Shown here: positions 2,993 through 11,476 of the stretch, in pieces
Layout: the number at the start of each line of letters is the position of its first letter
Position numbering within the stretch: the first letter of the stretch is position 1
Source of the DNA: a plasmid
Length of the DNA: 12,879 nt
Sequence record: NZ_OX291535.1
Reading direction: 5' to 3' (one strand)
Program-made: the position numbers and the translations under genes
Notes under the pieces: generated by a model
Told to the model about the DNA's origin: nothing
Seen by the model: only the letters and a program-made list of their open reading frames with translations
Database searches by the model: none

Positions 2993-3617
2993 CGCCCTTC
3001 GCCTGGCGTGCCTTGCGCCGGAATGCCTTGATCTCTGTCAGGCGGGCTTTGGCGTTTTCGGCCTCCTCCGGGGTTGCTGGTTCGGTGGGGTTGCCGTCCA
3101 GGTCGTAGCGCATGCACTGGTCGATGAGGCTCTGCTGGTACGAGCTCGTACCCGTGACAATGCCCAGGATGCGACGGACGGCTTTGCGGTCTGCCTCTGG
3201 CGGCATGTTCAGCTCTGCGCCTCGGGTCAGGATCTGCTCGATGATGCCCTTTGCCATGGGGCGACGGTCAACTCCCCGGGTCAGCAAGTCAGGCCAGTGC
3301 TCTTTCAGGAATGCTTTGGTCACCCGGTTGGCCAGCGCCTTTTTGGACTTGTTGGCGATCGCGATGTCCTGCTGGCGGCGGTCGTTCTCCTCCTGTCTGC
3401 GGATCCCCTCGGCGACCTGTTCAGGCGTCTTTTTCGGCTTTGCCGCTGTGGGCTTCTGTGCGGGCTTCTGCGGGGCTTTCGCTTTTGGCTGTACCTTCGC
3501 CTTGCTGGTAGTCCGTTCGGCTGGCTGCGGCTCAGATTTCGCGGCCTTTTCCGGCGGGACGTAGACCGTGCGGTTGCGTCGCTTGATGGTCAGGATCGGA
3601 CGGGTGGTTTCGGTCAT
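2976..3617 (-). CDS. FinO/ProQ-family RNA chaperone-like protein, 213 aa, with a Lys/Pro/Ala-rich basic N-terminal region
   Basis: MTETTRPILTIKRR... resembles the FinO N-terminus MTEQKRPVLTLKRK. ...KKALANRVTKAFLKEHWPDLLT and ...RKAVRRILGIVTGTSSYQQSLIDQCMRYDLDGNPTEP... parallel FinO regions from memory. The ATG at 3617 overlaps the upstream gene's TGA in an ATGA arrangement. The in-frame extension up to 4076 is Arg/Pro-rich junk. Confidence 0.6.
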   Translation of the reverse strand: MTETTRPILTIKRRNRTVYVPPEKAAKSEPQPAERTTSKAKVQPKAKAPQKPAQKPTAAKPKKTPEQVAEGIRRQEENDRRQQDIAIANKSKKALANRVTKAFLKEHWPDLLTRGVDRRPMAKGIIEQILTRGAELNMPPEADRKAVRRILGIVTGTSSYQQSLIDQCMRYDLDGNPTEPATPEEAENAKARLTEIKAFRRKARQAKGEKKGA

Positions 3618-4945
3618 AAATCTCTCTCTGGTCGGTTGGTCCGGATGTGGTCGGCAAGGGCGATCAGGGTGGCGGCGTCGCCGCGGTTCCGATCGATGCG
3701 CCGGATGATGTCGTTGATGTAGTCCCAGCGCCCGACGGCGGCAAGGACGGAAAGGGCGAGGCGGTTGAACCGGCTCTCTGGTACCCGGTCGAGGGTCAGG
3801 GGGATGCGCTTGCGGGGGCGTCCTGGACCGCGCCCTGTCCCTGGTCTTTTGAGCAGCTGCGGCTGCTCCCCCTGCGGCAAAATAACGGGGATCTTCGCCA
3901 GGCTGCGCGTCTCGTTCTGCGCGAACTCGGGCACCGCGATGTGCTCGTCTGTCCATGTCCTGCCTCCGGGCCTGGCTGATGCGCTGGAGTCGCAGGACGG
4001 GCAGGAGACGACGATCTCCCGTCGCGGCTTGCCCTTGACCGGTGCCTTGCTGATCACCAGGGGCGCGGCTTTGCAATCAGCGCAGACCGACGATGTCCAG
4101 ACCGCGTTGTCTGGCAGGGTGGCGTTCCGGTACTGGTGCGCGGCGTCATGCGGTGTCTGGAAGCTGACCGTCTGAAACGTGGGGGCGACGCTGAGAGGTG
4201 CCGCCCATGGCTGGCACCTGGGACAAGCAAGCTCCACCTCTCCGGCGTGCCCGTCGCCACCGTTCCAGCGCAGGGGCTCGCGGTGTTCGGGGCAGTAGTA
4301 CACGAAACCGTCGCGGCGTGTTTGCCCGACCGGGCCTGGTCGGCGATCGTGGAACCGTGCGCCCGGGTTGGCTCGCATGGCGCGGACGAGCGCCTCGCCC
4401 TGGTGGATGCCGTACCAGACCTGCCAGCCATCGCCGATGCCGATCAGGAACGGCGAGACGAACGGTGGGGTGCGGTTGACTCTCCCGCGTGCGTTGGCTC
4501 CGATGGTGGCTTCGCGTTCGCGGTTCCAGCAGGAGACGCACAGGCTCGAACCGGGCTTATTGGGGGCGATCAGGCGGTTGTCTTTCCGGCTGCAACGGGG
4601 GCAGAGCTTACGGGTGTCTGCCGGGGTGGTCAGTGGTGCGTCAGGGGGCTGTTCGGTACCGACCCAAAGCGCGAGGCCAGTGGGGCACCGGTGGCACTCG
4701 AGGTGGGGGTTTTCAATCGTGCGATCGAGGTGGCTCTGCTCATAAATCTGTCGGCATGCCTCGACCCGGAGGGAGCACCCGCCGGGGCAGGTGACGAACA
4801 AAACGCCGGGCATGATGTCGGGGAACCGCTCCGCAGCGCCTACGCACTTCAGTGCCTCGGTTGACGGCTGCGTCGCTTCTGTCGTGTCGTTATCGTCGTT
4901 CACTGCTCCCCCTGCGTCGAAATGGTCGCCAGACCTCGCCAGCAC
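3614..4945 (-). CDS. Cys-rich multi-zinc-ribbon protein, up to 443 aa; the C-terminus carries the AT-hook-like stretch GRGPGRPRKR; function unknown
   Basis: Seven CxxC/CxxxC pairs: CPGGC, CHRC, CPRC, CVSC, CPRC, CADC, CPSC. They are spaced as about three zinc ribbons. The ORF is long with the same codon bias as its neighbours. The GTG at 4945 lacks an SD, so the true start may be internal (for example the GTG at residue 15 or the ATG at residue 45). The stop overlaps the finO-like start. Confidence 0.55.
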   Translation of the reverse strand: MLARSGDHFDAGGAVNDDNDTTEATQPSTEALKCVGAAERFPDIMPGVLFVTCPGGCSLRVEACRQIYEQSHLDRTIENPHLECHRCPTGLALWVGTEQPPDAPLTTPADTRKLCPRCSRKDNRLIAPNKPGSSLCVSCWNREREATIGANARGRVNRTPPFVSPFLIGIGDGWQVWYGIHQGEALVRAMRANPGARFHDRRPGPVGQTRRDGFVYYCPEHREPLRWNGGDGHAGEVELACPRCQPWAAPLSVAPTFQTVSFQTPHDAAHQYRNATLPDNAVWTSSVCADCKAAPLVISKAPVKGKPRREIVVSCPSCDSSASARPGGRTWTDEHIAVPEFAQNETRSLAKIPVILPQGEQPQLLKRPGTGRGPGRPRKRIPLTLDRVPESRFNRLALSVLAAVGRWDYINDIIRRIDRNRGDAATLIALADHIRTNRPERDL

Positions 4946-6861: not shown

Positions 6862-7320
6862 ATGAAATCAAAGACTGAACTACGCGAGGCCGCGACGGCT
6901 CGCTCTCTGGCGGTGATCGCCACTGAAATGTCGGAGTGGTCGCTCGATGGGTTCTCCCACCTCAAGCTGCCGAACTTCTCCGCTGGGGAACGCCAGCAGA
7001 CGCTGTCCGGGTCGGTGGTGGTTGATCGCCCGCCGTTCGACTACGAGTGGGCTGGTACCGAGAAATTTAACACTCTGGCCACCCGTGCGCTGCAGGTGAA
7101 ACTTCCGGCATCGCGTGAGCGTAACTACGCCTGGTTGTGCGGCGTTGAACGGGAGACGCTGGCGACGGCGCTCCTCGTGGAGCTGTTCTCCGTCACCGGC
7201 TGCGTGGCGTTCGCCGGGCTGGGTAAGGTTGCCGATCTGGCGTTCCTGACGCTGGACGAGAGCGAGGCGGGGCAGATCAGGGCGGCGATGCTGCAGTGGC
7301 TCGATGGGGCGGCGGCGTAG
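6862..7320 (+). CDS. Hypothetical protein, 152 aa
   Basis: Strong AAGGAGGG SD 5 nt upstream of the ATG. Good codon bias. No family recognised. Confidence 0.65.
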   Translation: MKSKTELREAATARSLAVIATEMSEWSLDGFSHLKLPNFSAGERQQTLSGSVVVDRPPFDYEWAGTEKFNTLATRALQVKLPASRERNYAWLCGVERETLATALLVELFSVTGCVAFAGLGKVADLAFLTLDESEAGQIRAAMLQWLDGAAA

Positions 7321-7528
7321 GGGCTCGATCCTCGATCAGCTGGAGTGGGAAGGGCGACTGATCGAGGAGGCCATGGCGACGGAACTGCGGGGCGACCCGG
7401 TGCGCTGCGACCACCTTGCTGCGGCGCGGTTATGGCTGGAGTGTGTTGACCGGGCGTCTGATGACAGGTGGCGGGCGTTCTGCCTCGCCAGCTATGAATG
7501 GTGCGTATTCGTCGCAGTAGAACTCTGA
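7304..7528 (+). CDS. Hypothetical small protein, 74 aa from the ATG at 7304 (17-nt overlap) or 51 aa from the ATG at 7373
   Basis: ORF in the +1 frame overlapping the previous gene's end. The internal ATG at 7373 has an AGGAGG but only 2-nt spacing. Weak evidence overall. Confidence 0.3.
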   Translation: MGRRRRGSILDQLEWEGRLIEEAMATELRGDPVRCDHLAAARLWLECVDRASDDRWRAFCLASYEWCVFVAVEL

Positions 7529-7574
7529 CCGGCGGCGGCGTTGAGCCGTCGCTCCTCTGCGTGAAGCATCGATG

Positions 7575-8159
7575 TTAAGAGTTATTTAACTTCTTTATGA
7601 TCGCTGCGCCAAGCTGCCGAGTATTCATTTCATTTCCATTGCTATTTAGCAATGATATTTTTAAATCATGCGCAACATCACGTAGAAATGGCTTCACAAT
7701 AGTTACAGGCATGCCATTTCTTTGAACTGAAATACCGCCACTAAAAGTGCGACTGATTGTATAATCATTCCACTGCACACTTTCAGCCGCTCCTGGCAAG
7801 TCAGGAACCTCCTGGACAGTGAAAACCGCACGAACAATCCCTTTTTCCTTCCATCCACGCAAATACCCACTCCAAATATTTGCCCGAACTGATGATTCTT
7901 CTGAAATCGCACGAGCATTCCATACTCCAGTTTCACAGGAACCATCCCTTTTAAACATTTCGACTTTGGCCTGTTTTGATTTTAGTAACGCTTTTTTAAA
8001 ATCCGCTTCACCTTCAGGATTAAAAAAAAGTTCAGGGCGTGTGTCATGATCGATTTCAACAACATCGATCAGACGGTTTATTACCTGTTCGGGAGTTTCA
8101 AATCCCTTTGCTTGTGCAGCAAGACGGCTATATGTAGCGTCAGATATCGTAATATCCAT
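7575..8159 (-). CDS. Hypothetical protein, 194 aa, in the AT-rich cargo island. The N-terminus DITISDATYSRLAAQAKGFETPEQVINRLIDVV looks ribbon-helix-helix-like. A C-terminal domain of about 150 aa is unknown.
   Basis: Preferred start is the ATG at 8159, with a TAGAGGT SD 6 nt upstream. The track ORF starts 7 codons earlier. Codon usage is AT-rich and clearly unlike the flanking genes. Confidence 0.6.
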   Translation of the reverse strand: MDITISDATYSRLAAQAKGFETPEQVINRLIDVVEIDHDTRPELFFNPEGEADFKKALLKSKQAKVEMFKRDGSCETGVWNARAISEESSVRANIWSGYLRGWKEKGIVRAVFTVQEVPDLPGAAESVQWNDYTISRTFSGGISVQRNGMPVTIVKPFLRDVAHDLKISLLNSNGNEMNTRQLGAAIIKKLNNS

Positions 8160-8198
8160 CAAAGTACCTCTATAGATCAAAAATTAATCATAAAATTA

Positions 8199-8227
8199 AT
8201 CATAATTGATAAATTTAATGATTTCAA
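8199..8227 (-). promoter_or_regulatory. Sigma70-like promoter for the island gene 7575..8159: -35 TTGAAA (8227-8222), 17-bp spacer, -10 TATGAT (8204-8199)
   Basis: Read from the complement. The -10 lies in a tandem 12-bp repeat AAATTAATCATA x2 (8181-8204). The repeat gives a second TATGAT 12 bp downstream. The start codon is about 40 nt further on. Confidence 0.4.
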
Positions 8228-8605
8228 GATCTATAATTACCTGATATCGCAATATGGTTAACCGCCTCTAAAGAGCTATAAAAACCTGTAAACCCGCTCC
8301 TCGTGCCGCTTGGTTATAAACAAACCAGTTGAATCTACGTCAACAATAGCCTACTATTGTTGTACTGCAAGAGCATTCGCAGGGGGTATTAACCAGTAAT
8401 TAACCCTTTGCGCTGGGCAGTCAGGAGGCTGGTCTCCTGTTGGGAAGTTATGTTGCGGCTTCCTAGTAATAACAGTGAATTTGATAGACAGCAGAAAACC
8501 GCCGATGCTGCTAGATCCGAAAGGAACCAATGAAGGGAAATATTTAGGCGTTATGGTTCATTCTCATTAAATTGAGGAGAATTGCTTAAATGGGCGTCCT
8601 TCCTA

Positions 8606-9097
8606 TCACCCTCGCTGTATAGCTTTACATTTGGCCTCCGTTGCATGGTATGCAGTCACGGGGGCCAAATTATTTTCAGAGACATCAACTATCGCCATTG
8701 CGAAAAAGCCAGCCCCAGCAACGTTAATGCGACGAACAGCATTGAGCACAATAGTCTGCTCCGAGTAATCTCTGTTAACGTACACATTGCTCTGCACTGA
8801 GAATGCAGTTGCCAAAATCTCCGCACACTCTTGCCAACTTAGCTTATCCTTCGAGTTACGAGCAGATAGCACATGCCTAAACATTGCCCAAGTGATCGGT
8901 ATTGCTGGTGATGCAGGTATGTCCCAGCCGTTTCTCTGACAAACAACTTTCATTTGATTGAACTGCTTCTTAGTCATCAGATAGGTAAAACAAGGCGTCT
9001 CCCAAACTTCCTGAGGGAGACCTTTATCATCCATTTCTTCAGCTTGCTGTGTAAAAGCATAGAAAGCGTCACGGATAGCATCATCACCGATAGCCAC
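8606..9097 (-). CDS. Hypothetical protein, 163 aa, in the AT-rich cargo island
   Basis: GTG start at 9097 with an AAGGA SD 6 nt upstream. AT-rich codon usage. No recognisable motifs. Confidence 0.55.
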   Translation of the reverse strand: MAIGDDAIRDAFYAFTQQAEEMDDKGLPQEVWETPCFTYLMTKKQFNQMKVVCQRNGWDIPASPAIPITWAMFRHVLSARNSKDKLSWQECAEILATAFSVQSNVYVNRDYSEQTIVLNAVRRINVAGAGFFAMAIVDVSENNLAPVTAYHATEAKCKAIQRG

Positions 9098-9161
9098 TTC
9101 TTTTCCTTGTAAAATTTTTATGTTCGAATTTTATCATATTTAGCTATGTCACTTAGGACTG

Positions 9162-9653
9162 CTAATTCAGTAGCCCACTTTCCCGCAACTTATGGCGATA
9201 GTCCCGGACACGGCTGGTGTTCCACTCCTGTCCCGTCGCTGTCCGGTGCCCTGCTGCGTTCAGTGCCGACGCGATGGCGGGCAGAGTCGCGTTCTCTGCG
9301 GTCATGCTGACAATGAGCTGGTCAGCCTCATCACTGACGGCCTGGAAGCGCGGATCGGCTCCCCGGGGGACTATCTGTCTTGCAGGTTGTTGTGCGCTTT
9401 GTGGTGCTGTTTGTTGTGCGGTTTGTCGTGCAGGTTTACCGCCGACGGACAGCGCCCTGACTTCAGCCCTCAGCGCTTCGATGGCAGCTAAAAGTTTGGT
9501 GTCCATCCCTTCCGGCTTCGTGCCAAGTCCGGCGTTCAGCGCCTCTATGACAGCATCCGTGCGGGTTGCTCCGGTTCGTGCTGCGTTCTGCTCGATGCGT
9601 TCGATCAGGCTAACGGGTAGGCGAACGGTCAGGGTTTTGGTTTTCTCTCTCAT
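9162..9653 (-). CDS. DNA-binding regulator, 164 aa. N-terminal ribbon-helix-helix (CopG/Arc-like). Gln/Ala-rich repeat linker. C-terminal recombinase-type HTH (LNAAGHRTATGQEWNTSRVRDY).
   Basis: The RHH signature is KTLTVRLPVSLIERIEQNAARTGATRTDAVIEAL. I prefer the ATG at 9653, with a GGAGAG SD 8 nt upstream. The track's 50-codon N-terminal extension is low-complexity translation of the upstream DNA repeats. The C-terminal G.W..S.V motif resembles the recombinase-domain HTH of large serine recombinases. Confidence 0.55.
   Translation of the reverse strand: MREKTKTLTVRLPVSLIERIEQNAARTGATRTDAVIEALNAGLGTKPEGMDTKLLAAIEALRAEVRALSVGGKPARQTAQQTAPQSAQQPARQIVPRGADPRFQAVSDEADQLIVSMTAENATLPAIASALNAAGHRTATGQEWNTSRVRDYRHKLRESGLLN
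9390..9430. repeat. Four phased copies (11-12 bp period) of GT(T/C/G)GTGC inside the RHH gene. They encode its QTAQQTAPQSAQQPARQ linker.
   Basis: GTTGTGC at 9390, GTGGTGC at 9401, GTTGTGC at 9413 and GTCGTGC at 9424, read directly. Confidence 0.6.
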
Positions 9654-10180: not shown

Positions 10181-11476
10181 GTGTCACAAATTGATGAAAA
10201 TTCCGGCACTGCTGCCGACAACGTAACGCCGATCGCCGCTGCCAAGGTGGGACGCCCGTCTCTACAAAAAAAATACCCGACTACCGCGTTTCCCGTGGAG
10301 CTGGAGATCAACTACCGGAAGGGGCGCTACTCGTCCTCTCTTGAGAACGTTGTCGCCGCTATGCGCTGCCATTCCGTCACCGGCATCCAGCTCGCTTTCG
10401 ATGAGTTCTTTGCGGAGGAGGGGGCGTTCGTGAACGGGCAATGGTACCCGCTGTCCGACAACCTAGTTACCGAGCTGCGTCTGCGCCTCGCTGCTGCCGA
10501 CTTCGAGAAGGTGACCAAGGACAATGCCCGCGACGCCATGTTCTACGTCTGCGATGAGAACAAATTCGACAGCGCCCAGCGTTGGCTGACGGCTCAGGAA
10601 TGGGACGGCAAACCTCGCGTCAGTTACTTCTTCGAGCGGTGCTTCAAATGCCAAGGGGATCCCGAGTACCTGGCGGCGGTCAGCCTCTACACCTGGACGG
10701 CGCTTGCCGGGCGCGTAATGAATCCCGGAATCAAGGCCGACATGGTTCCGCTGCTGTACGGGCGACAGGGTGCCCGCAAATCGACGGGCGTTCGCCTTAT
10801 GTCGCCATTCCCTGACTCCTACTCCAGCTTCAACCTGAACGACAAGGACGACTCCCTAGTGCGCCGTATGCGTGGGTGCCTGATTGGCGAGCTGGAGGAG
10901 CTGCGCGGCCTCCACGGGCGCGACTCCGAATCGGTGAAAGCGTTCTTCTCCGCTGCCCACGACGAGTGGGTGCCGAAATTTAAAGAGTTCAAGGTGCGAA
11001 ACCCGCGCCGCGTGGTGTTCATCGGTACCACGAACAACAAGCAGATCCTCAATGACTCGACGGGGAACCGCCGCTATTTGCCCATGAATTCCGGGGACGT
11101 GGACTGCGCGGCCATCGAGAAAAACCGCTCGCAGCTGTGGGCTGAAGCGCTCCACCTGTTCAATGAGAATGGGGTGATGTGGGAGGCCGCTGAAACGCTG
11201 GCGCGTAAGGTGCATGACGAGTTCCGCGTCGAGGATCCGTGGGAAGACGAGATCGCCGAGCTGCTCAAGCTGGACGTTGACGACTGCGACCCGACTGCTT
11301 TCGTGCCGACGAAGGCCTTGTTCTCTCAGGTAGGGCTCATGATTGGCCATACCAGCAACAAGCAGCATCAGCGCATGGCGGCTATCATGTCCCGATTGGG
11401 CTATGAGGTTGGCAGGAAGCGCATAAACGGTGCGTTAGTTCGTGGCTACTTCCGTCGAACGCAAGCTGTCGTGTAA
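10181..11476 (+). CDS. VirE / D5-family (superfamily-3-like) P-loop NTPase helicase, Rep-like replication initiator of the P4-alpha C-terminal or PICI Rep type; 431 aa
   Basis: GTG start with an AAGGAG SD 8 nt upstream. The Walker-A-like motif is LLYGRQGARKST. Downstream reads VVFIGTTNN...GNRRYLPM, which is VirE-family-like. An iteron/AT-rich origin follows immediately 3' of it, as in pri-rep-ori modules of phage satellites. Confidence 0.6.
   Translation: MSQIDENSGTAADNVTPIAAAKVGRPSLQKKYPTTAFPVELEINYRKGRYSSSLENVVAAMRCHSVTGIQLAFDEFFAEEGAFVNGQWYPLSDNLVTELRLRLAAADFEKVTKDNARDAMFYVCDENKFDSAQRWLTAQEWDGKPRVSYFFERCFKCQGDPEYLAAVSLYTWTALAGRVMNPGIKADMVPLLYGRQGARKSTGVRLMSPFPDSYSSFNLNDKDDSLVRRMRGCLIGELEELRGLHGRDSESVKAFFSAAHDEWVPKFKEFKVRNPRRVVFIGTTNNKQILNDSTGNRRYLPMNSGDVDCAAIEKNRSQLWAEALHLFNENGVMWEAAETLARKVHDEFRVEDPWEDEIAELLKLDVDDCDPTAFVPTKALFSQVGLMIGHTSNKQHQRMAAIMSRLGYEVGRKRINGALVRGYFRRTQAVV

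Follow-up and report, generated by a model that had tools for sequence, protein, structure and literature searches.

Does a pair of adjacent AT-rich genes on a small enterobacterial plasmid work as one system, or were the two genes acquired separately? The question is raised by the 12,879-nucleotide (nt) stretch of NZ_OX291535.1 analysed here (the window, to whose positions all coordinates refer), in which two minus-strand genes, orfB and orfA, share a low-GC insert in an otherwise GC-rich element. An initial annotation had taken the pair, encoding proteins of 194 and 163 amino acids (aa), for one candidate defence or interference system carried as payload by a P4-like satellite or phage-inducible chromosomal island (PICI). 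Comparison with related elements points instead to two independent cassettes: orfA with a convergent, structured small RNA (sRNA) predicted on the opposite strand and abutting its stop codon, and orfB as a lone gene with a conserved operator. The whole account, in which a slot filled in two steps holds a toxin-antitoxin-like module of orfA and an antisense sRNA beside an orfB autorepressor cassette, has in our judgement a slightly better than even chance of being right. The first part of the argument uses the following features:

7563 to 9161, no strand: AT-rich insert of 1.6 kb and 41.6% GC that empty-slot relatives lack, defined by junction comparison with L010, L011 and L012, by composition and by a repeat scan
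7563 to 8293, minus strand: orfB cassette (the gene with its own promoter and operator), the later, nested insertion, absent from plasmid pSYM9
7575 to 8159, minus strand: orfB, 194 aa if begun at its ATG and 201 aa if begun at a TTG (8180)
8606 to 9097, minus strand: orfA, 163 aa, with a GTG start and an AAGGA ribosome-binding site
9162 to 9653, minus strand: backbone gene for a ribbon-helix-helix (RHH) and recombinase helix-turn-helix protein, directly upstream of orfA and also present in empty-slot relatives

Composition sets the insert apart. Sliding GC falls to 0.34-0.46 at ~7500-9200 between flanks that both run at 0.56-0.70, GC content is 41.6% in 7564-9161 against 61.1% in the remaining window, and GC at third codon positions (GC3), 0.60-0.80 in three backbone genes, drops to 0.31 in orfB and 0.43 in orfA. 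The initial annotation had drawn an AT-rich island at ~7560-9161 with two same-strand genes of AT-rich codon usage, and its coordinates proved essentially exact when the boundaries were fixed to ~3 bp by comparison with empty-slot relatives. Both open reading frames (ORFs) have conserved homologues and are therefore real genes.

The slot is the single variable site of a ~12-kb high-GC backbone and lies between a 152-aa gene and the RHH gene adjoining VapE. The slot is empty in two relatives, E. coli ET650 unnamed4 (L011) and pEC8-4 (L012), where the 152-aa gene runs from its stop codon through GCCGTCGCCCCTCTGCGT straight into the RHH gene at its 3′ end and stop codon; in the window, 7563-9161 comes between these parts. 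A repeat scan found no terminal direct or inverted repeats around the insert, which makes recombination likelier than transposition, and a transposon-like insertion was dropped on this ground. Among close relatives the slot has three states, empty, orfA only and orfA plus orfB, with the same junctions common to all. pSYM9 (L010), which carries window positions 8294-9161 at 98-99% identity, is in the orfA-only state, as are Citrobacter 12.3-kb plasmids and pYe4449-2; the window and three PLSDB records, whose islands are 100% identical, are in the third. The variable cargo slot that had been predicted, with alignment of relatives as the check, is thus seen with its flanks kept, and the empty and orfA-only relatives dispose of the possibility that both genes sit at this position in every related element.

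These three occupancy states imply that orfA and orfB are not one system, as does their distribution elsewhere. orfB is present in 3 of ~50 backbone relatives and orfA in many; orfA occurs without orfB in most relatives and on unrelated ColE1-like, MOBQ and Rep3 plasmids, and orfB for its part is found apart from orfA, in chromosomal islands, Tn7-like cargo, conjugative plasmids and viral contigs of 78-110 kb. None of 34 orfB loci has an orfA-like neighbour. The 446 bp between the two genes hold an oppositely oriented predicted RNA gene, overlooked in the initial annotation, and each gene appears to have a partner that is not a protein, the operator for orfB and the antisense sRNA for orfA. 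That the two nevertheless form a single defence, abortive-infection or toxin-antitoxin operon delivered as satellite payload could be argued from their adjacency on one strand, their common AT-richness, their lack of any known family, and orfB homologues that sometimes lie in defence islands (one in Pectobacterium with Dcm, GmrSD and AAA_15 neighbours, another near a TIR gene). Given the independent occurrence of the genes and the opposing RNA gene between them, we regard this as very improbable. Searches of PADLOC-DB v2 with orfA, orfB and three neighbours also gave no matches at E ≤0.1, so that the catalogued defence component sought by this check did not emerge and a known defence system was rejected. 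No match of either protein reached a family threshold in Pfam, NCBIfam or PHROGs, in keeping with the earlier remark that they resemble nothing recognised; NCBIfam and PHROGs gave marginal N-terminal matches only.

The host speaks against a satellite as well. In a search of 5,426 complete E. coli genomes, 30 of 30 matches lay on plasmids and none was chromosomal, the element had no match among 50,697 phage records, and a Pfam scan of ten ORFs matched no integrase family; the element was accordingly rejected as a P4-like satellite or PICI. The one recombinase-type match among the ten was that of the RHH gene (Recombinase family, E 0.0021, under the cut-off), and VapE alone is satellite-like in the gene content of the element. 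The best PLSDB matches, all complete and circular, are 11-13-kb plasmids of Citrobacter, Escherichia, Enterobacter, Klebsiella and Yersinia, which makes the window probably an entire plasmid; the Citrobacter freundii P3 plasmid (12,931 bp) covers 99% of it at 95.7% identity. As judged by these matches, the host element is a free ~12.9-kb enterobacterial plasmid family.

Comparison of the three states shows the insert (7563-9161) as a mosaic of acquired cargo with a nested structure. In the proposed order, the slot would have been filled first by the orfA module (8294-9161), one protein gene and one RNA gene, and the orfB cassette (7563-8293) would have been inserted later beside it. At the left junction in pSYM9 (L010 8733-8804), 16 bp (CAAATCAGACCGCGCT) survive from where the ancestral RHH gene ended at its 3′ side, and the present RHH gene adjoining orfA has a diverged C-terminal end; together these observations suggest that the orfA module arrived through recombination inside the RHH gene. 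Because the RHH gene is also present in empty-slot relatives, it is not a dedicated partner of orfA. In L016 (943-3951) a Tn3-family transposon lies ~50 bp upstream of orfA in place of the RHH gene and orfA and the sRNA are intact, so the module is independent of this neighbour.

The partner that orfA does keep is predicted on the opposite strand:

8329 to 8357, plus strand: sigma-70-type promoter of the sRNA, TTGAAT-17-TACTAT, with equivalents at the same place in every lineage
8363 to 8677, plus strand: predicted structured sRNA of ~315 nt, convergent with orfA, both ends predicted
8363 to 8447, plus strand: 5′ accessory domain of the sRNA, helices P1-P3, common with a second plasmid sRNA
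8481 to 8609, plus strand: conserved core of the sRNA, a closing helix GAUAG/CUAUC round a six-helix junction (model R2, 107.5 bits, E 5e-22)
8629 to 8677, plus strand: terminator-like hairpin and U-rich tail, arms 8629-8641 and 8658-8670, in orfA codons L144-K156

DNA matches to 5,093-bp plasmids have 85% identity over orfA and its 3′ flank and 97.7% over the non-coding 3′ flank alone, and ~240 nt past the orfA stop codon are recognisably conserved in every orfA lineage, including metagenomic homologues at 33-46% protein identity. From an alignment of 20 diverse orfA loci, RNAalifold predicted 52 pairs, 28 of them with compensatory double changes, and a covariation term of -11.1 kcal/mol. Paired cells made up 96.2% of those in the alignment compared with 79.2% in shuffles, and 205 cells were changed on both sides compared with 73; neither value was reached in any of 500 shuffles. 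As a control, sliding the partner columns by 1-3 positions reduced pairing to 36-50%. Read on the strand antisense to orfA, the structure contains 109 G.U pairs and 39 mismatches, and read on the orfA-sense strand 6 and 142, an asymmetry that places the RNA on the strand opposite orfA.

We then asked how closely the RNA follows the gene, using R2, a covariance model of the core, on loci many of which were outside the model-building set. Where orfA was intact and sequence downstream of it was available, R2 matched 41 of 41 loci, each time on the strand opposite orfA and abutting the stop codon; it matched none of 22 loci that lack orfA. These comparisons show, at the level of conservation and covariation, that the RNA exists and what its strand and structure are, and that its linkage to orfA is invariable; its transcription we infer. 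Promoters in other lineages, such as TTGACG-16-TAGAAT and TTGAAT-17-TACAAT, have the right strand and distance. The R2 scan found the sRNA absent from L097 and L098. In L097 (1561-1770) orfA is degraded to a 69-aa C-terminal fragment, with the hairpin-encoding stretch kept and the sRNA core gone; in L098 there is a partial orfA protein match (residues 73-154) and the sRNA is likewise absent. Protein and sRNA thus appear to have been lost together.

The predicted sRNA is complementary to the final ~72 nt of the orfA coding sequence. The 3′ strand of its core overlaps the orfA stop codon (8606-8608), and the terminator-like hairpin starts ~25 nt past the core, within orfA, in a stretch whose other strand specifies LAPVTAYHATEAK, the peptide of OrfA with the highest conservation. 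Within the stem, one pair is made by the third codon positions of P146 and T153 and covaries synonymously (GC 16, CG 3, AU 1), and an invariant U.G wobble in the stem becomes a C.A mismatch on the orfA mRNA strand, which argues that the hairpin is selected as an RNA structure of the antisense strand. It is most simply taken as the sRNA terminator. The stretch would be a case of dual coding, in which synonymous positions of orfA covary so as to preserve a hairpin on the opposite strand.

No catalogued RNA family accounts for this gene. Against Rfam 15 (4227 families), nothing in the window reached gathering score and nothing in 8100-8700 reached E ≤1, and the sRNA positions of five distant orfA loci gave no match, so a known family was rejected both here and in distant lineages. 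PtaRNA1/XCV2162 is an Rfam antisense RNA paired with a hypothetical toxin gene that has spread erratically and horizontally through proteobacterial plasmids and chromosomes, and the orfA-linked RNA is alike in being an antisense RNA beside a hypothetical toxin gene on plasmids. PtaRNA1 is present in Rfam 15, yet there was no match at E ≤1 in the window or the five distant loci, and identity with it was rejected. A cer/Xer site at 8336-8450 was also rejected, there being no match to the cer core with ≤3 mismatches allowed.

The 85-nt 5′ domain (8363-8447) is an extra present in the window, pSYM9 and a Klebsiella plasmid. It is 82-94% identical to the 5′ part of a second unannotated RNA found in 67 PLSDB records. 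Its hosts range in size from ColE1-like plasmids of 4.7 kb to plasmids of 197 kb, and include primase plasmids of 13.5 kb as well as conjugative plasmids of the IncN, IncF and Aeromonas kinds. Examples of this second sRNA are:

L013, 1292 to 1470: second sRNA
L014, 1380 to 1565: second sRNA
L061 to L066, ~1500 to 1680: second sRNA

This RNA of ~180 nt has a promoter of its own and ends at a rho-independent terminator; of its 42 predicted pairs 7 are compensatory, and four helices have compensatory changes. Neither the L013 nor the L014 copy matched Rfam, which makes two unannotated RNA families that are both absent from that database. In at least 4 of 8 loci examined the second sRNA converges on a ~155-aa gene, and in 4 of 4 cases that gene gave weak PBECR1 matches (E 0.02-0.08). 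Diverged copies of the 5′ domain (19-26 bits with model R1) lie at the equivalent position beside orfA in a 5,093-bp plasmid, pYe4449-2 and Citrobacter plasmids, and the remaining orfA lineages lack the domain altogether. As far as these alignments go, there are two RNase-like genes, each with an sRNA in the same geometry, and the sRNAs swap a 5′ domain. Homology between orfA and the ~155-aa family was rejected, the profile-profile comparison being insignificant (probability <1%) and only the H-x4-R and VTAY motifs aligning; the resemblance is one of positional analogy. In the ColE1-like plasmid L013 a cer-like core lies ~750 bp from the shared 5′-domain element.

So elaborate an RNA could itself be the main actor, serving in plasmid maintenance or copy control or as a ribozyme-like or protein-sequestering RNA, with orfA as its binding, processing or chaperone protein. 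The six-helix junction, with its invariant single-stranded motifs, is more conserved than the protein, as the flank identities given above indicate, the 5′ domain is exchanged between two sRNA families, and L014 and L063 have no annotated protein gene beside the related sRNA (by annotation only; the unannotated downstream DNA was not scanned). We consider this reading distinctly unlikely, since orfA keeps an enzyme-like residue pattern and the orfA-type core was never seen without orfA in the loci searched.

The orfA family is rare, with 53 representative clusters among 1.84 billion proteins, all of 150-190 aa and without fusions. The gene is solitary in diverse replicons, namely the 12-kb family, ColE1-like Mob plasmids, a 5,093-bp MOBQ plasmid, a Rep3 plasmid and a Pectobacterium chromosome, and none was found in viral contigs. 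A conserved protein partner, such as an upstream RHH antitoxin, was rejected because the upstream gene differs from backbone to backbone and the RHH gene occurs without orfA. The AlphaFold2 model is confident (predicted local distance difference test score (pLDDT) 89, predicted template modelling score (pTM) 0.85) and describes a soluble alpha/beta protein. Residues H75, R80, T148, Y150 and K156 are invariant or nearly so; among 39 family members H75 is ≥90% conserved and lies in a helix (70-84) preceding the sheet, and T148 is invariant and lies in the last strand (145-152). A His in a helix together with a C-terminal Thr is the active-site configuration of colicin D and of PBECR domains, the latter being known from mobile elements as stand-alone genes too (Iyer et al. 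2017, PMC5512222), and the placement of H75 and T148 fits that description. Weak PBECR3 matches were obtained for 2 of the 39 members (E 0.02, under the cut-off). orfA differs from colicin D and PBECR in an extra N-terminal region of ~65 aa and in having no significant profile match, and Foldseek gave no confirmation: against the PDB, orfA had no match by sequence and no significant one by Foldseek. Solved structures searched with the orfA and orfB family profiles yielded nothing meaningful. With weak evidence from the fold and with this residue pattern we moderately favour the assignment of orfA as a BECR-fold RNase of the colicin-D/PBECR type, and RNase activity would be expected of it.

These observations can be joined into a mechanism. 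orfA would encode a metal-independent BECR-fold endoribonuclease of the colicin-D/PBECR type. The ~315-nt sRNA would start at its own promoter (~8363), run toward orfA, fold into a six-helix core abutting the stop codon and end at the hairpin inside the last ~70 nt of orfA, giving ~70 nt of full complementarity to the mRNA. It would restrain orfA by antisense pairing and mRNA decay, in the manner of 3′-overlapping type I pairs, or alternatively would bind the OrfA protein directly, in type III fashion. The pair might thus provide small plasmids with a toxin-antitoxin-like module for addiction or abortive defence, with orfA as a putative toxin that the sRNA would neutralise. We read the module in this way because it lacks a protein partner, because its fold and residues are those typical of a toxin, and because gene and RNA are inherited together without exception and decay jointly. 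If so, a previously unseen RNA gene turns an orphan hypothetical protein that is common among small clinical and environmental plasmids into half of a two-component RNase-type module.

The same enzyme could instead be of use to the plasmid as a specific RNase that is not toxic, its possible targets being host defence RNAs, CRISPR RNAs (crRNAs) for example, or the control RNAs of competitor plasmids, and the antisense sRNA could do no more than tune its level. Iyer et al. (PMC5512222) propose such roles for the PBECR domains of phages and mobile elements, solo ones among them. The absence of orfA from the viral contigs searched and its presence on many small mobilisable plasmids that already hold RelB/ParE-type modules would also suit a non-toxic role. 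Under such a role the gene should outlive loss of its regulator in some lineages, whereas the sRNA linkage is absolute (41/41) and a degraded orfA type has lost the sRNA too; mutual dependence fits this better than fine-tuning. We therefore hold a non-toxic RNase to be fairly unlikely.

How does the toxin-antitoxin-like reading compare with described systems? Convergent type I pairs with separate promoters and a 3′ overlap or shared terminator include txpA/RatA, bsrG/SR4 and yonT/SR6 of B. subtilis and par Fst/RNAII of pAD1, and 3′-overlapping type I pairs are plasmid- or prophage-borne and have no protein antitoxin. SR6 is described as overlapping yonT at the 3′ end (PMC5848175). The geometry of orfA and its sRNA matches these systems, in that a cis antisense RNA is predicted to overlap the toxin mRNA, here over its last ~72 coding nt. 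The toxins of the listed pairs are membrane peptides of ≤60 aa, whereas orfA, instead of a small (<~60 aa) hydrophobic membrane peptide, is a 163-aa alpha/beta protein, modelled as soluble, with enzyme-like residues; their antitoxin RNAs are simple stem-loops of ~100-220 nt, whereas the orfA-linked RNA has a covariation-supported six-helix junction. SymE/SymR and RalR/RalA are precedents for an RNA antitoxin that controls a nuclease-type toxin, and both are unrelated to orfA in sequence and structure: SymR overlaps symE at its 5′ end, the fold of SymE is AbrB-like, and RalA pairs in trans with the help of Hfq. In the type III systems ToxIN, CptIN and TenpIN, which are plasmid-borne and often act by abortive infection, an endoribonuclease toxin is neutralised by an adjacent structured RNA. 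The effector type and the adjacent structured RNA resemble those of the orfA module, but the type III antitoxin is an upstream, same-strand tandem-repeat array processed by the toxin, whereas the orfA-linked RNA is a single unit, downstream and on the opposite strand. No such array was found; a scan of 8100-8300 detected only the 12-bp operator repeat of orfB. To our knowledge, no RNA partner has been described for PBECR domains.

Because the module lacks defining features of both type I and type III, we do not place it in an existing family and file it as a variant of RNA-controlled toxin-antitoxin-like modules. The literature searched on pYe4449-2, pSYM9, VapE plasmids and RNase-type type I systems does not describe orfA or orfB. 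A bolder possibility, which we put forward tentatively and judge to fall somewhat short of an even chance, is that orfA and its convergent sRNA are the founding example of an undescribed RNA-antitoxin class, a type I/type III hybrid. In that class a BECR-fold RNase toxin would be held by a single elaborate antisense RNA whose terminator is embedded in the toxin coding sequence; it would range from enterobacterial small plasmids to environmental Proteobacteria, have a sister family in the PBECR1-like ~155-aa gene with its ~180-nt sRNA, and serve plasmid addiction or abortive phage defence. Such a pairing of RNase and antisense RNA would be unlike any described toxin-antitoxin type.

Several points weigh against the proposed module. 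The sRNA promoter is modest (8/12 consensus), and the U tract of the terminator is imperfect, which is why a simple terminator scan did not flag the hairpin. RNAduplex found no consistent site for the sRNA at the orfA 5′ untranslated region or start codon (z-scores -2.9 to +1.0), and pairing there was rejected. The conserved junction structure exceeds what plain antisense control needs, and the sRNA may have a role other than antisense control. Type I toxins are normally small membrane peptides, unlike the 163-aa soluble orfA; orfA of the window has no Pfam match, and its profile-profile comparison with the PBECR1-like family was insignificant.

The second cassette is built quite differently. 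Beyond the gene itself, its features are:

orfB residues 1-35: N-terminus resembling RHH and SeqA-N
orfB residues 43-115: beta-alpha-beta-beta-alpha-beta domain with an invariant NIWSGYLRxW motif
orfB residues 124-147: small beta unit
orfB residues 155-193: helix-extended-helix C-terminus resembling SAP/Rho-N
8172 to 8235, minus strand: predicted orfB promoter (TTGAAA 8227-8222, TATGAT 8204-8199) with overlapping operator
8188 to 8222: four-half-site operator ATCAT-N-ATCA/ATGAT-N-ATGAT, its promoter-proximal half being the 12-bp repeat

Close full-length homologues of orfB fall in 15 clusters, and a profile search extended the family to at least 264, from Vibrio, Shewanella, Pseudoalteromonas, Aeromonas, Yersinia and alpha- and beta-proteobacteria. 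The first ~115 residues are common to the family, and the C-termini (~80 aa in the window protein) differ or are missing; this suggests, as far as an alignment can, a DNA-binding module joined to a swappable recognition, sensor or effector module. The N-terminus (MDITISDATYSRLAAQAKGFETPEQVINRLI) gave weak matches to DUF7557 (E 0.003, 17.5 bits against a cut-off of 25) and to the SepA-family N-terminus (E 1e-4), and one family member, P0122, exceeds the SeqA_N cut-off (25.4 bits against 23), which supports the RHH-like N-terminus fused to unassigned domains described in the initial annotation. The AlphaFold2 model (pLDDT 80, pTM 0.45) has a helix-loop-helix at 7-35 in a low-confidence N-terminal region, the beta-alpha-beta-beta-alpha-beta domain at 43-115, the small beta unit and a C-terminal helix pair, and no fold match to it was found. 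The structural modelling that had been advised thus gave a confident model for orfA, and for orfB a less certain one, with the Foldseek search of orfA not significant.

The operator is the better evidence. The 12-bp tandem repeat at 8176-8205 (2.6 copies, 94% matches) is real, and the promoter-like site TTGAAA-17-TATGAT (8227..8199, minus strand) that had been placed in it is present; it would serve orfB alone, the 446-bp gap leaving no operon for it to drive. Such sites are no commoner in the region than shuffled expectation and are weak evidence alone. Upstream of orfB homologues from Enterobacterales to Vibrio, Shewanella and alpha- and beta-proteobacteria lies the palindrome ATCAT-(AT)-ATGAT; more ATCAT/ATGAT half-sites flank it at a distance of roughly one helical turn and overlap the -10 element. 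The central palindrome lies ≤110 nt upstream in 18 of 27 orfB loci compared with 4 of 2140 background windows (0.19%), and the mean number of half-sites upstream is 2.8 at orfB loci and 0.30 in background. A conserved operator at orfB is shown by this enrichment; that OrfB is the protein that binds it we infer. Clustering of all neighbouring ORFs over 34 loci revealed no conserved neighbour, and a protein partner was rejected.

From sequence and context, then, we conclude that orfB is probably a single-gene, self-repressing cassette. The RHH/SeqA-N-like protein would repress its own promoter through the four-half-site ATCAT/ATGAT operator and would travel between mobile elements as a lone autoregulated gene. 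It is like the RHH autorepressors (CopG, Arc/Mnt, ParD, NikR and the SeqA N-terminal domain) in its predicted beta-alpha-alpha N-terminus and in symmetric half-sites about one helical turn apart that overlap its own -10, and its second domain has the beta-alpha-beta-beta-alpha-beta topology of NikR, in which an RHH is joined to a ferredoxin-like domain. It differs from them in a middle domain (NIWSGYLRxW) and C-terminal modules that match nothing known, and in having no toxin partner, partition genes or metal-binding motif. The family would then consist of single autoregulated genes, one per mobile element, with a family-wide operator and swappable C-termini. For the insert as a whole, adjacent AT-rich cargo genes need not be one system, and the true partner of either may be non-coding.

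The genomic context of orfB is always a mobile element or island: besides the Pectobacterium defence island, homologues adjoin an HNH protein in an Enterobacter island, lie near traI on a conjugative plasmid and, at one locus, are Tn7-like cargo. Members with a short form or variant C-terminus at L040, L041, L044, L048, L050 and L059 adjoin P4-type tyrosine integrases (Arm-DNA-bind_3 and Phage_integrase) at island edges in Vibrio and other genomes. Homologues with 47-48% identity on IMG/VR contigs L053-L057, of 78-110 kb, and on L026 lie in a conserved block of one viral lineage, possibly a phage-plasmid; the block holds a Tad2-like gene and an HD-domain gene, with a Dam methylase ~1 kb upstream. 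This confinement to mobile DNA, together with a constant N-terminal 115 aa and variable or absent C-termini over at least 264 clusters, would suit an effector in defence, anti-defence or exclusion, in which the RHH part autoregulates much as AcrIIA1-type or Stl-type proteins join DNA binding to target recognition. The context is circumstantial, and there is no PADLOC or PHROGs match and no fold match; we treat an effector role as possible but on the unlikely side, and retain the self-repressing cassette as the description of orfB.

Outside the insert, the backbone genes encode VapE, a ProQ/FinO-family protein, a resolvase-type recombinase and the RHH protein. The ProQ/FinO-family protein lies at ~3041-3691 (minus strand) of the window, by homology with L001 5467-6117. 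Members of this family are chaperones for structured antisense RNAs, and the backbone protein could be a partner of the predicted orfA-linked sRNA; the orfA/sRNA module is also found on plasmids without a ProQ/FinO-family protein among their listed genes. Next to the AT-rich island, a GC-rich segment of 211 bp (7319-7529) is absent from L010, L011 and L012. It is bracketed by the direct repeat GGCGGCGGCGT (7308-7318 and 7531-7541), contains a 74-aa ORF (7304-7528, plus strand) with a weak PHROG 'transcriptional activator' match (E 0.018), and looks like a separate indel. Comparison of L010 10675-12647 with window 10181-11476 shows that the replication module has been swapped within the plasmid family, and pSYM9 and pMB20-type relatives carry a DUF927 primase-helicase and a Rop-family gene in place of the VapE of the window.

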